A stretch of 18,952 nucleotides of DNA from a virus (Duplodnaviria > Heunggongvirae > Uroviricota > Caudoviricetes): positions 1-18,952 of IMG/VR virus record IMGVR_UViG_2563366990_000003. One strand, written 5' to 3'. The first letter of the stretch is position 1, and each line of letters begins with the position of its first letter. Below the pieces are notes generated by a model. It was not told the origin of the DNA. It did not search any database and was given only the letters and a program-made list of their open reading frames with translations. Shown in pieces: positions 4,600 through 14,493 of this stretch. Both the position numbers and the translations under genes were made by a program.

Positions 4600-5349
4600 T
4601 CAGCCCGCAGCGCCATCCGTGACGGTGATCTCCGCCACCGCCGCAAACTCACCGTTGCCGGTGACAACAGGGATCTGCGCTTTACCTGCCGCAACACCTT
4701 TCACGATGATCGTGTTCCCTTTCACGGTAATGGTGGCGAAATTCTGATTCGCTGAGGTTGCGCGGAACGTTTTATCCGTTGCGCCTTCCGGCTGAACGGC
4801 CACGGTCAGGGTGATATTCTGACCTTTTGCCACATTCCCCGTTAGTGGCGTCACGGTAATACCGGTGACCGGTGTGATTTCTCCCCGATCCTCAGCCAGC
4901 GACGGACGACCGATATTGGTGATTTTCACAGTGCGGGTGATCACTTCTTTGGCGGTCACGGATTTACCAATGGCGCTCACCCAGCCACGGAACACATCCA
5001 CCGTGCCGTTCGGGAAGCGGATTTTGTAGGCCCGGGTCTCGCTGCTGTCAAACCAGGCAATCAAATCACGCTGCCCTTTCTCGCCGGGCTTCCAGGCCAG
5101 CGTAAAACTGGTGTCACCGGCAGATTTCTGCCCCTGCCCGGTGGATACCCAGTCAGCATCCTCATCATCCAGATAGTTATCGTCGTAGGATTCCGCCGTC
5201 ATCTCGCCGGGGGTCAGATCCTTTATTTTTGCCAGGCGCGTCCAGTCATCATCTGACAGCGGGTTTGCCCAGGCATCGCCATTTCCGGTATAAACCCAGA
5301 GCGTGGTGCCGGAACCTTTTACCGGCGCAAGGGGATTAGGGAGCGTCAT
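4600..5349 (-). CDS. V: Major tail protein V, with C-terminal Ig-like domain
   Basis: 249-aa ORF with extensive similarity to lambda gpV along its length ([45 protein letters not shown]...[14 protein letters not shown]). ATG start. Confidence 0.95.
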
Positions 5350-10553: not shown

Positions 10554-10789
10554 TAAAACCTCGCCAGTTTAAATCCCGGTTTTCCCCGCCTGCGGCTCAC
10601 CATCGCGGCAAGCCTGCGTTCCCACTCCTGACGTCCGGCGCGGATCTGAGAAAGGCTTTCCAGCGTCAGTTGCTGCCCGTTGAAGGTGACAGACTTCCCC
10701 TCCAGTACGGCCATTTCCGCTTCACGGTACCGCTGTATCATTTCTCTGGCTTCTTCTGTGCTCACAACCAGCCTCCTGATGTTATCCAT
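10553..10789 (-). CDS. Head-tail joining protein, gpW-like
   Basis: 78-aa ORF between terminase large subunit and portal, the lambda W position. The C-terminus (RRRGKPGF) resembles the lambda gpW C-terminus (RRRGPAGF). ATG at 10789 confirmed. Confidence 0.7.
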   Translation of the reverse strand: MDNIRRLVVSTEEAREMIQRYREAEMAVLEGKSVTFNGQQLTLESLSQIRAGRQEWERRLAAMVSRRRGKPGFKLARF

Positions 10790-12885
10790 GGATTATCTTC
10801 CGCACGCTCCGTCCGCAGTTTTTTCTTCCGGCGACGGCGTTTTTCTGCCCCGGCCGTCAGTTCCGGGGATACCGTTTCACCAGAACGCGCCTGCGGGAAG
10901 ACGAGCCACGTTTCCCGCTGTGCCCAGTCCGGTGCGGAGGGCCAGCGGATCTTTTCATAACCATGCAGAACAGCAAGCGCATCCGCATAAACCAGCAGGT
11001 CAAACGCCTCGTTAGCGCCCCTGCCCGGTTTTCGCCATTTTCCGTCACTGCCGCGCTCTTCATAGGTCAGCTCATCGTAAAACCACCGCCCCAGCCAGTC
11101 GGGAAAGTGGATATAGTTCGGCCCTGGTGTGTCACGCCACAGGGCATTATTTACACGGTCCTTAAACGCATCCGTCTGAACCAGCCACAGCGCGACATCG
11201 CCACTGGCTCTGGCACGGCGGGCACTTCTGCCGGTATTATCCGGGAAGGTACGGTTAATCAGCCTGTCACGGCGAAGACCATCCCCCTTGAACAGAAACA
11301 CCCTGTTGCCCAGTCCGTCACTCCGGCAACGACGCCAGAAACGATAGGCGTTATCTGTCACCCCGGCTTCCCCTCCCGTATCCACCGCCATGGCCATCAG
11401 ACGCATGCGCACATCCGGATCAGAAGCCAGCGGCCATGTTTTATGGAACACATCCGTCAGCAACAAATCCCAGTCCTCCGGATATGCCGCCGGATCAACC
11501 GGCAGACTTTCACCGTTGGGACTGCATCGCAGTGAATGCCGGATGTTGTAGCGATCAACAATCCAGCGTTCCCCCTGCTCTCCGTATCCGGTGATCTGCA
11601 CAACAAAACGGCGATTTTTACCGCCCTGTACGTCAACCGTTGCCTCAATAAAACGCACACCATCCGGCACAGATCGCCGGGGAAACGGCTCGGCACGCTG
11701 TTCAAGCAGTTCACTTTTACGCTGTTCCGTGGCTGAACGGGGCAGATAGGGTCGTCCGATATCGGTGTTCACCACCGCTTTCAGGGTCTCTTCACTGCCG
11801 GTTCGCTCATACTCTTCTTCTGCCGCCAGCAGCTTAAAAATCAGTTGTTCCCAGGTCTGAAACGCCGCAGCCGGCCCCTCCATCCAGAAACTTGCTATTC
11901 TGGAATTTCGGGGGGTTCCGGTGATACTGCCATCCGCCGCTGCCCGTTCGCCTTCCCGCAGCCAGATCCCCTGGTTATTCAGTTCACGCTTCTGTTCCGG
12001 AGCAATCAGGCCGCGGCAGTGCGGACACATCAGGCGGGCCGCCTGCCCGGCAGCCACAAAATCAGGGTTATTCCGGTAACCGGTCATGTTATCCATCACC
12101 GGCTGAAAATATTCCCCGCAGTGCGGACACGGCCAGTACCACCGGCGGCGGTCTCCCCGGTTATACAGTGACAGGATCCCCGTTGTTGGCGGTGCCTCAT
12201 GTGCGCCACCACAACGCCATTTGGTATCGGTGATATCCCGCCCGGGCGAACTTTCGACCAGGGTCATCCCCGAGGACATAAAGGTGGTGGTACGCTTTGA
12301 GGCCAGGGTGAAGGCATCCCCTTCCCCGTCCACGTTTTCAGGGAAACGGTCATAATCCGTCAGCGCCACACGACGGTAATCCGAGGAGGAAAATACGGTG
12401 ATCGACGGCCAGCCAATTTTCAGGAATGAGCCGTCAAGAAACATTTTATCGTGGACGTTGTTGTCATTACGGGAAGGGCTGAGGCGTTTGCAGACCTCCG
12501 GGCTGTGGCGAAACGTCCTGGAAAGACGCGTTCTGGAATGCTCACGCGCCTTCGTCTCGGTCATCTGCACCACCAGCATGTCAGCCGGATCACAGATGAT
12601 GCCGTACACAATCCAGCCATCAATCAGCCCTTCGGTTTTCCCGGTTCGCGCCGGTCCGACAAACACCACCGCGTCATATTCACGGGCTGATAATGTATTA
12701 ATGGGGTCTATCATATAGGGCGTCAGCGATGACTCCCACGGACCGGAAGTATTGGCTCCCCGTGGTACCCGCATATAACGCCTGATGGCTTCCGCTACTG
12801 GTAACCGGCCAGGTGGGCGAAACAGCGAGGCCACTTCGCGCCAGATATCGGATGCGCGGCTATGGCTCTCGTTCACCTGATTCAC
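10762..12885 (-). CDS. Terminase large subunit (lambda gpA family)
   Basis: 707-aa ORF with a Walker A-like motif (VGPARTGKT), Cys-rich segments (CPHCGEYF, CPHCRG) and a basic C-terminal tail. The start is a GTG at 12885 that overlaps the small-subunit stop; no in-frame ATG is nearby. The exact start is uncertain. Confidence 0.88.
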   Translation of the reverse strand: MNQVNESHSRASDIWREVASLFRPPGRLPVAEAIRRYMRVPRGANTSGPWESSLTPYMIDPINTLSAREYDAVVFVGPARTGKTEGLIDGWIVYGIICDPADMLVVQMTETKAREHSRTRLSRTFRHSPEVCKRLSPSRNDNNVHDKMFLDGSFLKIGWPSITVFSSSDYRRVALTDYDRFPENVDGEGDAFTLASKRTTTFMSSGMTLVESSPGRDITDTKWRCGGAHEAPPTTGILSLYNRGDRRRWYWPCPHCGEYFQPVMDNMTGYRNNPDFVAAGQAARLMCPHCRGLIAPEQKRELNNQGIWLREGERAAADGSITGTPRNSRIASFWMEGPAAAFQTWEQLIFKLLAAEEEYERTGSEETLKAVVNTDIGRPYLPRSATEQRKSELLEQRAEPFPRRSVPDGVRFIEATVDVQGGKNRRFVVQITGYGEQGERWIVDRYNIRHSLRCSPNGESLPVDPAAYPEDWDLLLTDVFHKTWPLASDPDVRMRLMAMAVDTGGEAGVTDNAYRFWRRCRSDGLGNRVFLFKGDGLRRDRLINRTFPDNTGRSARRARASGDVALWLVQTDAFKDRVNNALWRDTPGPNYIHFPDWLGRWFYDELTYEERGSDGKWRKPGRGANEAFDLLVYADALAVLHGYEKIRWPSAPDWAQRETWLVFPQARSGETVSPELTAGAEKRRRRKKKLRTERAEDNPWITSGGWL

Positions 12886-13358
12886 ATATCGGCCTCATCA
12901 CAACAGTCAATGACTGCCTTTTCCAGTGTGTCGCGGATCTCATCAACCACAATCTGTACTTCATTCAGTTGTGATGCGGTCCACCCCCTGTCCCTCTCCA
13001 GCCGGTCAGGCCAGGTTTCCAGTACCTGAACTATCGCTTTCACCACGACAGAAAACGACCGCCTGACATCACTGACAGGCACGAGCAGACCGGTTTCCTG
13101 CTCAAATTTCAGTCGGTCACGTTCTGACTGGTACCATGCTTTACGCGCATGAGGATCCATTTCCTCGTTATCTACAGGCAGAGGAGCTTTCATCAGTTCG
13201 GCAAGGATATCTGTCAGTCGGTACAGTTTGAGATTGCTCTCATGACCACCGGCTGGGCTTATGTTTTTTACCCGAGCCGCGACAGTCTGTCGATGAGCAC
13301 CGGATAATGCGGCCAGTTGGGAAATATTCAGATGCAGATTTTTTAATTCACGATCCAT
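12882..13358 (-). CDS. Terminase small subunit (Nu1-like)
   Basis: 158-aa ORF with an N-terminal HTH-like segment (ISQLAALSGAHRQTVAARV), a strong GGGGGAG RBS, and a position directly upstream of the large subunit and about 150 bp downstream of the cos-like site. Confidence 0.78.
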   Translation of the reverse strand: MDRELKNLHLNISQLAALSGAHRQTVAARVKNISPAGGHESNLKLYRLTDILAELMKAPLPVDNEEMDPHARKAWYQSERDRLKFEQETGLLVPVSDVRRSFSVVVKAIVQVLETWPDRLERDRGWTASQLNEVQIVVDEIRDTLEKAVIDCCDEADM

Positions 13359-13499
13359 AACTCCCCCTGAAAATTATGTAAATACACGCCAGTGATGAAC
13401 AAAAAACAACCAAATTCGACACTAAAAATTTTTATTTTTCTATATATCAATGACTTACACTGGTGGTGATGGTGCCATAAAAATCAAAAAATGCGCCTT

Positions 13500-13525
13500 T
13501 TTCCGCGCCGCCCGCCCCGTGTTCA
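13500..13525 (-). other. Putative cos site (cosN-like GC-rich core) with cosB-like AT-rich spacer down to the terminase start
   Basis: The minus strand reads ACGGGGCGGGCGGCGCGGAAAAAGGCGCATTTTTTGATTTTTATGG. This resembles the lambda cohesive-end region (GGGCGGCGACCT followed by a T-rich tract) and sits at a lambda-like distance upstream of the Nu1-like start. Exact nick positions cannot be read from sequence. Confidence 0.45.
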
Positions 13526-13777
13526 GGCCCACCCCACCAGGAGGACCCGCAAAATGATAATGGTTATCATTTGTAATGTAGTCCGGTTTCTTCCACCATC
13601 GCACCGGACCAGCGACCATGAGGGGACAACGCCGCGCTCCGTTAACGCGGTAAACCCCGGTGTGTATCGTTTTTGATTATCCCCGCACACTCGCGCAGAG
13701 GAGTCTCCCTGTCGGGCTGCGGTCTCTGTTAATACGGGAATACGGCGACAATACCGCGCCATGGATAATAAGGTCGC

Positions 13778-14002
13778 TCAACACACTGGCTGTAATGCAG
13801 CCGATACCATGCGGCATTTAGCGGCATTCATCGTACACTCAACGGTTAGCTCTTCATTCGTGGCATTCACCTGAAAGGTCCGGGAGTATAATTGCGTACA
13901 TTTACCACTGAACGAACCTTCAACAAGAACACGACCACGCTGCAAAATACGGAACGGAATTGTTCCCTGAAAAGGCTTTACGGTTACCAGTAATTTCTTC
14001 AT
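13778..14002 (-). CDS. Hypothetical 74-aa protein with four cysteines, between Rz and cos
   Basis: The ORF-track start is a TTG at 14020. An in-frame ATG at 14002 has a GGAGAA RBS and begins MKKLLVTVKPFQG. The region looks lower in GC than its flanks. No family recognised. Confidence 0.5.
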   Translation of the reverse strand: MKKLLVTVKPFQGTIPFRILQRGRVLVEGSFSGKCTQLYSRTFQVNATNEELTVECTMNAAKCRMVSAALQPVC

Positions 14003-14025
14003 GCATTCTCCGGATAACAAAAATA

Positions 14026-14493
14026 CTAGTTAATACACTGAGTGCGGATATATTCCTGCGCCCCTTCCAGCTGCTTCTGCATTGTCATCAACCGTTCTCT
14101 GAGGATGAAATAATCCCGTTCAGCGGTGTCTGCCAGTCGGGGGCCGGTTGCATTATCCACGCCGGAGGTGCCGGTGGCTTCACGCACGGTACCGTGGCAG
14201 GTGGCGTTGATCCGCAGGCGCTTACGACCAGCGGCAACATCAGCACGCAGAGTTTCATTTTCAGCTCTCGCATCGGCTAATTCCCTCGAGTATTTTGCAT
14301 CGAGCGCAGCAACATCGCGCTGGCGCACCTGCATATCAGTAATGGTGGCATTCGCCTGTTCCAGCTCTCTGGCTTTTTTATCGCGCTGCGCTTTGTAGGT
14401 GATGGCGTTATCGCGGTAATGATTCAGCCCCAGACTAAGCGCACCACAGGCCACCAGCAAGGCAATGATGACCACACACAGAACGCGGTTCAT
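14026..14493 (-). CDS. Rz: Rz i-spanin
   Basis: 155-aa ORF with an N-terminal TM segment ([18 protein letters not shown]) and a charged coiled-coil-like periplasmic part. Position downstream of the endolysin and the embedded Rz1 frame support the call. Confidence 0.85.
14088..14273 (-). CDS. Rz1: Rz1 o-spanin (lipoprotein), embedded in the +1 frame of Rz
   Basis: 61-aa ORF with a lipobox (LVVSAC) and a Pro-rich mature part ([27 protein letters not shown]) closely resembling lambda Rz1. ATG at 14273 confirmed. Confidence 0.82.

Follow-up and report, generated by a model that had tools for sequence, protein, structure and literature searches.

The window analysed here, 18,952 nt of the viral record IMGVR_UViG_2563366990_000003, very probably carries at 13387-13572 the site of the cohesive ends (cos) of a lambdoid prophage that belongs to the Shiga-toxin-phage/Gifsy/VT1-Sakai packaging lineage, together with a palindrome that its sequence marks as a Fur-box operator. 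The host of the prophage is E. coli. This is an ordinary lambda-type cos, and the kind of element has already been described: the cos of the Gifsy/DUF1441 lineage by Feiss's group, and the Fur site from K-12. An initial annotation of the window had proposed a lambda-like cos upstream of the terminase genes, and with it packaging by cos cleavage and the position of the genome ends. The homology of the subsites with those of lambda, Qin, DLP12 and phages of the same terminase lineage, as well as a gpA-family large terminase subunit (TerL) and a lambda-family portal, support this proposal. The sequence, order, spacing and homology of the subsites and the families of the surrounding genes are all directly observed.

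Arrangement of the cos subsites

Read on the minus strand, the elements follow one another as ...CAAATGATAACCATTATCATTTTGC-GGGTCCT-CCTGGTGGGGTGGGCCTGAACA-CG/GGGCGGGCGGCG/CG-GAAAAAGGCGCATTTTTTGATTTTTATGG-CACCATCACCACCAGTG-TAAGTCATTGATA..., the slashes marking the predicted nicks. Lambda, with its right end joined to its left, reads GATGATAATCATTATCACTTTAC-GGGTCCT-TTCCGGTGATCCGACAGGTTA-CG/GGGCGGCGACCT/CG-CGGGTTTTCGC... The comparison with the lambda cos region, which the initial annotation had recommended, gives the same order of elements, with cosQ identical and so too cosN's left half. The GC-rich core that it had reported, GGGGCGGGCGGCGCGG, is indeed present on the minus strand, at 13518-13503.

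The packaging-termination signal cosQ is the heptamer GGGTCCT at 13542-13548 (minus strand), which corresponds to lambda cosQ (bp 48473-48479), an element that saturation mutagenesis by Wieczorek and Feiss in 2001 reportedly delimited to 7 bp. The same heptamer stands in the same place in relatives: it is equally positioned in lambda, Qin, DLP12, mEp460, mEp213, LLS and cdtI, with flanks that vary, and the 7-bp cosQ is highly conserved among lambda-like phages (PMC4669245). From cosQ, the spacer CCTGGTGGGGTGGGCCTGAACA (13520-13541, minus strand; 22 nt, against 21 nt in lambda) leads to cosN, so that cosQ lies 24 bp from the predicted top-strand nick, as compared to 23 bp in lambda.

The cosN sequence, CG/GGGCGGGCGGCG/CG (13504-13519, minus strand), has the GGGCGG left half of lambda and a CG dinucleotide on both sides. 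Nicks predicted at 13518/13517 in the top strand and at 13506/13505 in the bottom strand would leave the 12-nt 5' cohesive end GGGCGGGCGGCG (13517-13506), which differs from that of lambda at positions 7, 8, 9, 10 and 12, that is, at five of the six positions of the right half. Two-fold symmetry is best (10/16 bp) when centred between overhang positions 6 and 7, as in lambda, for which the same value of 10/16 bp has been reported (PMC9026076). Among lambda-like phages, the CG dinucleotides flanking the nicks are conserved and the variation of cosN is concentrated in bp 7-12 (PMC4669245). The combination GGGTCCT-N22-CGGGGCGG occurs a single time in the window, where shuffled sequences lead one to expect 0.06 occurrences with up to 2 mismatches.

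When IMG/VR was scanned for GGGTCCT-N18..32-CGGGGCGG, 132 matches were returned, 106 of them with a spacer of 19-22 nt (mostly 20 or 21). CG directly follows the 12-nt GGGCGGNNNNNN in 97 of these 106 sites, compared to 5 of the 26 with other spacings, a pattern that agrees with the conserved CG flanks and variable right half described by Feiss. Among the variants recovered, two agree with published accounts: GGGCGGCGTCCG departs from lambda at positions 9 and 12, like the end of N15, and GGGCGGCAGCGT at positions 8, 9 and 11, like that of Gifsy-1. The variant found in the window, GGGCGGGCGGCG followed by CG, recurs at 44 loci of IMG/VR in combination with two different types of cosB/terminase, and this fits the known modular structure of cos.

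On the other side of cosN, the AT-rich stretch GAAAAAGGCGCATTTTTTGATTTTTATGG, which carries A5, T6 and T5 tracts, had been described as a T-tract-containing spacer. The stretch is there, but it is not a mere spacer: it corresponds to lambda I2, a functional bent segment, and a full predicted cosB follows it. With the predicted left end (window 13517) counted as +1, the I2-like segment extends from +15 to +43 (13475-13503, minus strand), and it resembles lambda I2; a static bend is presumed. Packaging in lambda requires I2 (bp 18-50), which has poly-dA/dT tracts and an intrinsic bend (PMC4856287). Five phages of the DUF1441 lineage share the motif CGCGG..GGC..TTTTT without variation.

Within the predicted cosB, the candidate R3 binding site of the small terminase subunit (TerS), CACCATCACCACCAGTG, lies at +44 to +60 (13458-13474, minus strand), an offset that agrees with R3 of lambda (50-65) and of N15 (48-60); it also aligns with R3 of Fels-1, VT1-Sakai, mEp460 and Gifsy-2. 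Between R3 and R2 comes an I1-like IHF site, TATCAATGACTTA (13445-13457, plus strand). It matches the consensus WATCAANNNNTTR exactly, this is the only exact match in the whole 18.9-kb window, and among the 44 loci the site changes at the four N positions only. The candidate R2, TAGTGTCGAATTT, is inverted (its reverse complement contains TTCGACACTA) and is found at +94-106 (13412-13424, minus strand), where it aligns with the inverted R2 of Gifsy-2 (CAGTGTCGAA, the perfect inverse of its own R1), Fels-1 and VT1-Sakai, located at +93 to +96. Finally, the candidate R1, GTTCATCACTGGCG, spans +118 to +131 (13387-13400, minus strand); its GTTTTTTGTTC..CA block is invariant across the lineage, in which R1 is found at +118 to +123.

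A scripted search for a direct/inverted/direct repeat triple, which recovered R3, R2 and R1 of lambda as a control, found clear triples in Gifsy-2 (TCGACACTGAA), Fels-1 (TCATCATCTT) and VT1-Sakai, at the offsets typical of the DUF1441 lineage (R3 at about +45-52, inverted R2 at about +93-96, R1 at about +118-123). The homologous positions of the window hold CACCATCACCACC (+44-60), an inverted TTCGACACTA (+94-106) and TTCATCACTGG (+118-131). These have only the TC..CAC core in common, and we therefore treat them as candidates rather than as demonstrated sites.

Which enzyme would read these signals? According to the gene calls, the long genes around the cos region all lie on the minus strand. 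The 158-aa TerS (12882-13358, minus strand) belongs to the DUF1441 family (Pfam DUF1441, 1.7e-48; PHROG 141 'terminase small subunit', 6e-68) and is of the Gifsy/VT1-Sakai type. It is followed by the 707-aa TerL of the gpA family (10762-12885, minus strand; Pfam GpA_ATPase 8e-81, GpA_nuclease 6e-84), then by a gpW-like adaptor and by a lambda-family portal; in the window, TerS, TerL, W and portal are all encoded by full-length frames. A lambda-like cos is expected to show a 7-bp cosQ about 23 bp before the nick, a 12-nt end related to that of lambda and a gpA-family TerL encoded just downstream. Here the distance is 24 bp, positions 1-6 of the predicted end are those of lambda, and the TerL gene is in place.

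The initial annotation had also placed the site at a lambda-like distance from a Nu1-like gene. The distance holds, as the TerS start codon, an ATG at 13358, is at +160 from the predicted left end and Nu1 of lambda at +191. The name holds by position but not by family. TerS reaches the Pfam cut-off for DUF1441 only and not for Phage_Nu1 (PF07471), which lambda Nu1 itself matches at 2.5e-100 in a control, and the sole similarity between the two proteins is 24% identity over the N-terminal 62 aa (E = 0.011). TerS is thus the positional and functional equivalent of Nu1, outside the Phage_Nu1 family. Searching PDB sequences with TerS gave nothing meaningful. TerL is 24% identical to lambda gpA over nearly its whole length, and we noticed that the DNA signals of cos are far better conserved than the TerL enzyme reading them.

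Taken with lambda, then, the window has in common the cosQ heptamer, the first six cohesive-end positions, the CG flanks, the symmetry, the A/T-tract I2 segment, the predicted order R3-IHF-R2(inverted)-R1, a Fur-box palindrome 6 nt upstream of cosQ, and the families of TerL and portal. It differs in the spacer, the right half of cosN, the TerS offset and family, the divergence of TerL and the R sequences, which are unrelated to those of lambda. With the phages of the DUF1441 lineage (Gifsy-1/-2, Fels-1, VT1-Sakai, mEp460, mEp213/LLS and cdtI) it shares the TerS family and the overall layout of cos, and Gifsy-1 is, according to Feiss, one of the lambda-like phages that have 12-nt 5' ends together with a complex cosB. 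The cohesive ends themselves differ within this lineage (GGGCGGCGCGCT in LLS, GGGCGGGAGCGT in cdtI, GGGCGGGAGCGG in mEp460 and GGGCGGGCGGCG in the window), a variant heptamer, GGTACTC, takes the place of cosQ in Gifsy-2 and Fels-1, and the cores of the R sequences differ too, so that packaging specificity presumably differs as well.

Genome ends and nicking register

Related phages offer evidence on the physical ends. The record of phage LLS, whose TerS is 50% identical to that of the window, annotates its bases 1-12 as a 12-nt '5' extended single-strand cohesive site GGGCGGCGCGCT'; it ends in ...GGGTCCT-N20-CG and starts exactly at the homologous nick. Similarly, the record of phage cdtI begins at GGGCGGGAGCGT, directly after ...CCACG, which is again the homologous nick. 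The mEp records (JQ1827xx) start at the terminase gene rather than at physical ends and were set aside as uninformative on the nick.

The case of ASU11 (ON416862.2) is less direct. This phage was induced with mitomycin C, its TerS is 98.7% identical to that of the window and it has the same cosB. Its record (L001, around 3290) is without 43 nt, from -6 to +37 around cosN, and thus has no cosN as deposited. The chromosomal copies listed match the ASU11 junction in two pieces, over 343-344 nt for a 301-nt query, which means that these copies contain the 43 nt. The gap is probably an assembly artefact from the joining of under-covered virion ends, and in this respect it is suggestive of virion ends at cosN, though not proof of them. 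Searches of the literature for ASU11 found nothing, and those for the cohesive-end strings GGGCGGGCGGCG and GGGCGGGAGCGT found unrelated papers only.

One other record shows an irregularity at this place: mEp460_4F5 (LR595868.1; L002, positions 1-20) starts 5 nt before the homologous predicted nick, and its cohesive-end segment has 3 nt fewer than that of mEp460 (GGGAGCGCGG and GGGAGCGGCGCGG, respectively). The missing 3 nt are possibly an end-of-assembly error.

Several points weigh against our reading. The window is a prophage, and the physical ends of its phage are placed by homology with relatives. None of the contigs ends at the predicted nick among the 44 IMG/VR and 15 metagenome loci with the exact cosN; judged from their contig IDs, the IMG/VR loci appear to be mostly prophage regions of isolate genomes. 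The R sequences of the window are degenerate, their triple scoring about 20/33 where Fels-1 and Gifsy-2 reach 29/33 and VT1-Sakai 25/33, and an unbiased repeat search was swamped by A/T-rich matches. Compared to mEp460, the spacer between cosQ and cosN is 2 nt longer and the right half of cosN 2 nt shorter, which leaves room for a register shifted by 2 nt, CA/CGGGGCGGGCGG/CG. Moreover, the CG flanks are separated by 13 nt in VT1-Sakai and other close relatives.

The last two points bear on a cos site cut in another register or with another overhang (10-13 nt), or 2 nt to the left to give CGGGGCGGGCGG, which we consider unlikely. In its favor, the distance from cosQ to the GGAAAAA tract is kept at 37-38 nt across types, the 2 nt gained by the window in the spacer being offset by the 2 nt lost in cosN, and it is R3 that sets the position of the right-hand nick in lambda (PMC9026076). 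The offset of R3, which differs from that of mEp460 by 1 nt in either register, does not discriminate. The 12-nt register is favored by the left half-site ACG/GGGCGG, by the presence of both CG flanks and by the best symmetry (5/8 pairs, against 4). The 13-nt variants belong to a sister sub-lineage, comprising VT1-Sakai (L136) and the loci L076, L074 and L119, with GGGCGGGCGGGCG in VT1-Sakai and L076 and GGGCGGGTCGGCG in L074; in these sites either the overhang length or the flank rule varies.

A functional cos in the 12-nt register must also be weighed against a relic, the sequence of a defective prophage having stayed intact after its use in packaging was lost. In Shiga-toxin-producing E. 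coli, lambdoid prophages are in many cases defective. CP-1639, the nearest phage record, bears the description cryptic, and its TerL annotation is shortened. Furthermore, there are up to 5 copies of the region per genome. The intactness of all the subsites, the full-length TerS, TerL, W and portal frames and the recovery of ASU11, so close in TerS and cosB, after mitomycin C induction all argue for a working site, and we regard a relic as quite improbable.

The Fur-box palindrome next to cosQ

On the far side of cosQ lies a perfect palindrome (13552-13572, in no defined orientation) with 9-nt arms, AAATGATAA at 13552-13560 and TTATCATTT at 13564-13572, 3 nt apart. A 7-bp inverted repeat had been reported here at 13553-13569; it is real, although it sits one base off, at 13554-13570, and its arms extend to 9 nt. 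The palindrome is 6 nt from cosQ, upstream in the orientation of the phage. Of the two roles initially offered for it, that of a cosQ-like element falls, as the true cosQ sits between the repeat and cosN, at 13548-13542; that of a protein-binding site fits, since the sequence is that of a Fur box. The palindrome is outside the cutting signal.

Indeed, its plus-strand core TGATAATgGTTATCA (13555-13569) agrees with the 7-1-7 Fur motif TGATAATNATTATCA at 14 of 15 positions. The motif is found once in the window, with this one mismatch, where 0.04 occurrences are expected with up to 2 mismatches. The 19-bp Fur consensus is matched at 15/19 positions on either strand, and overlapping 14/19 matches lie 6 nt away; nothing else in the window scores as high. 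By both consensus sequences, the palindrome belongs with the Fur boxes.

TGATAAT(C/T)ATTATCA stands at this place in lambda, Qin and DLP12; in Qin, its centre is 233 nt before nohA. Chen et al. 2007 reported a Fur cluster at -233 of nohA (22.3 bits), selected in vivo and gel-shifted by Fur, and one of 25.3 bits before nohB (PMC2189734). With respect to cosQ, cosN and the gene of the small terminase, the palindromes of Qin nohA and DLP12 nohB/nohD lie where ours does; the K-12 sites match the 7-1-7 motif perfectly and the window has one mismatch. Being homologous to the Qin site, the palindrome of the window is a homolog of an experimentally bound Fur site. It is a Fur-box operator, of the kind that accompanies many cos modules of the lambda type, and most likely binds host Fur.

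This association is not limited to a few phages. Of 78 distinct cos sites of the lambda type, 39 possess a box (up to 3 mismatches) whose end lies 3-7 nt before cosQ, compared to 0.5% of background, taken as random 40-nt windows from the same loci. In many of the cos sites devoid of a box, cosQ is abutted by a terminator-like hairpin.

A DUF3950 gene (ynfO/ylcI, without annotation in lambda) runs leftward in lambda, Qin and DLP12, its start being some 145 nt from the box. The window has no such gene, nor any DUF3950 homolog even at E<=10, and for the window we thus rejected the box as the operator of a DUF3950 gene. Such a gene stands beside the box in 9 of 48 box-bearing sites. Within the IMG/VR set, we noticed it beside perfect Fur boxes in 9 of 9 cases and in 0 of 36 cases without a box. 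The lambda copy, at about 48112-48303 (L005 613-804, minus strand), encodes a YlcI/YnfO homolog 100% identical to DLP12 YlcI over 64 aa and is directed away from cos.

The box, which about one in two distinct cos sites has at 5-7 nt from cosQ and which is kept without the DUF3950 gene, as in the window, could be a functional accessory element of lambda-type cos modules, beyond the operator of a neighboring gene, a reading that we hold to be doubtful. If it were true, Fur bound beside cosQ could subject late transcription that reads through into the packaging and head genes to control by iron, or could equally act on an antisense transcript or on the terminating cos cleavage. A simple consensus scan found no sigma-70-like promoter at the box, and in the literature searched no paper names Fur together with cosQ.

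That the repeat would itself belong to the signal for packaging, either extending cosQ or pausing the motor, rather than being a transcriptional operator, is very improbable: its nearly fixed distance from cosQ (5-7 nt in half of the distinct cos sites), its retention in 39 sites without the leftward DUF3950 gene, including the window, and the mosaic joints that group it with the cos module speak for this role, but about half of the cos sites are without it, many having the terminator-like hairpin there, lambda cosQ reportedly comprises 7 bp, and the sequence is that of the Fur consensus, bound by Fur in its Qin copy. A terminator formed by the GC-rich core and the T-run finds no support, a promoter/terminator consensus scan being empty at both the core and the palindrome.

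Just upstream of the palindrome we observed a hairpin-like inverted repeat, GTCCGGT-N15-ACCGGAC (13581-13609, minus strand), which ends a block of about 220 bp found after Rz in many Shiga-toxin (Stx) phages. Its variants (ACTGGAT; GTCCTGT/ACAGGAC in mEp460) keep the pairing on the late-transcript strand, and it has no Rfam match. Rfam searches found no RNA family either in the whole window at the gathering threshold or in 13300-14100 at E<=1.

Packaging model, neighboring genes and distribution

The nick positions, the binding of proteins to the sites and any role of Fur are inferred, and by homology with lambda the steps of packaging may be pictured as follows. The DUF1441 TerS would bind the three R sequences of cosB, and host IHF would bend the DNA at the consensus between R3 and R2, aided by the A/T-tract bend of the I2-like segment. 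This bend would position two gpA-type TerL nuclease centres on cosN, and nicks 12 bp apart, at 13518/13517 on the minus strand and at 13506/13505 on the plus strand, would leave the 5' overhang GGGCGGGCGGCG. The end bearing cosB would be packaged towards lower window coordinates, with the terminase and head genes entering first. At the next cos on the concatemer, GGGTCCT together with cosN would trigger the terminating cut.

Upstream of the cos region, an 80-aa frame (13778-14020, minus strand) adjoins the non-coding cos stretch, and beyond it lies the gene of an Rz spanin (14026-14493, minus strand). None of the short frames that run across the palindrome, cosQ and cosN, 13455-13619 and 13523-13762 on the minus strand and 13491-13676 on the plus strand, has a Pfam match. 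The first two, which were the ones scanned against PHROGs, match small PHROG families (5188, and 6954, labelled 'Rz-like spanin'). They probably correspond to frames that other phage records mis-annotate over cos.

A 241-nt segment covering cos finds matches in 569 of 5426 complete E. coli genomes, mostly of Shiga-toxin-producing lineages; in 227 of these genomes, the match extends over 80% or more of the segment. The cos region also matches many records of Stx-converting phages, in which the site is unannotated. Against groups of these phages, homology breaks at about 13582 (before the palindrome), at 13542 (after cosQ) and at about 13455-13467 (after R3/I1), and with three such breaks recombination appears to have shuffled the cos subsites as separate modules. 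We also noticed paired convergent lambda-type cos sites, 0.56-0.9 kb apart, in several IMG/VR contigs: in L027 (4162-4197 on the plus strand and 4722-4757 on the minus strand) and in L011, L033, L083 and L116. One site of each pair has its cosQ abutted by a terminator-like hairpin (GGCCGGAGAAATCCGGCTTTTTTTT). The L027 pair adjoins capsid-like genes and may belong to a satellite or to an element of the phage-inducible chromosomal island (PICI) type.

In conclusion, our analysis fixes the probable genome ends and the packaging direction of a prophage family present in about one tenth of complete E. coli genomes, mostly Shiga-toxin-producing ones. In the database records of these prophages, the site is unannotated or crossed by spurious reading frames. 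The predicted 12-nt cohesive end can be used to check the assemblies of induced phages, as the 43 nt lost from the ASU11 record illustrate. Of wider interest is the question of why so many phages of the lambda type, lambda among them, have a consensus Fur operator beside cosQ.

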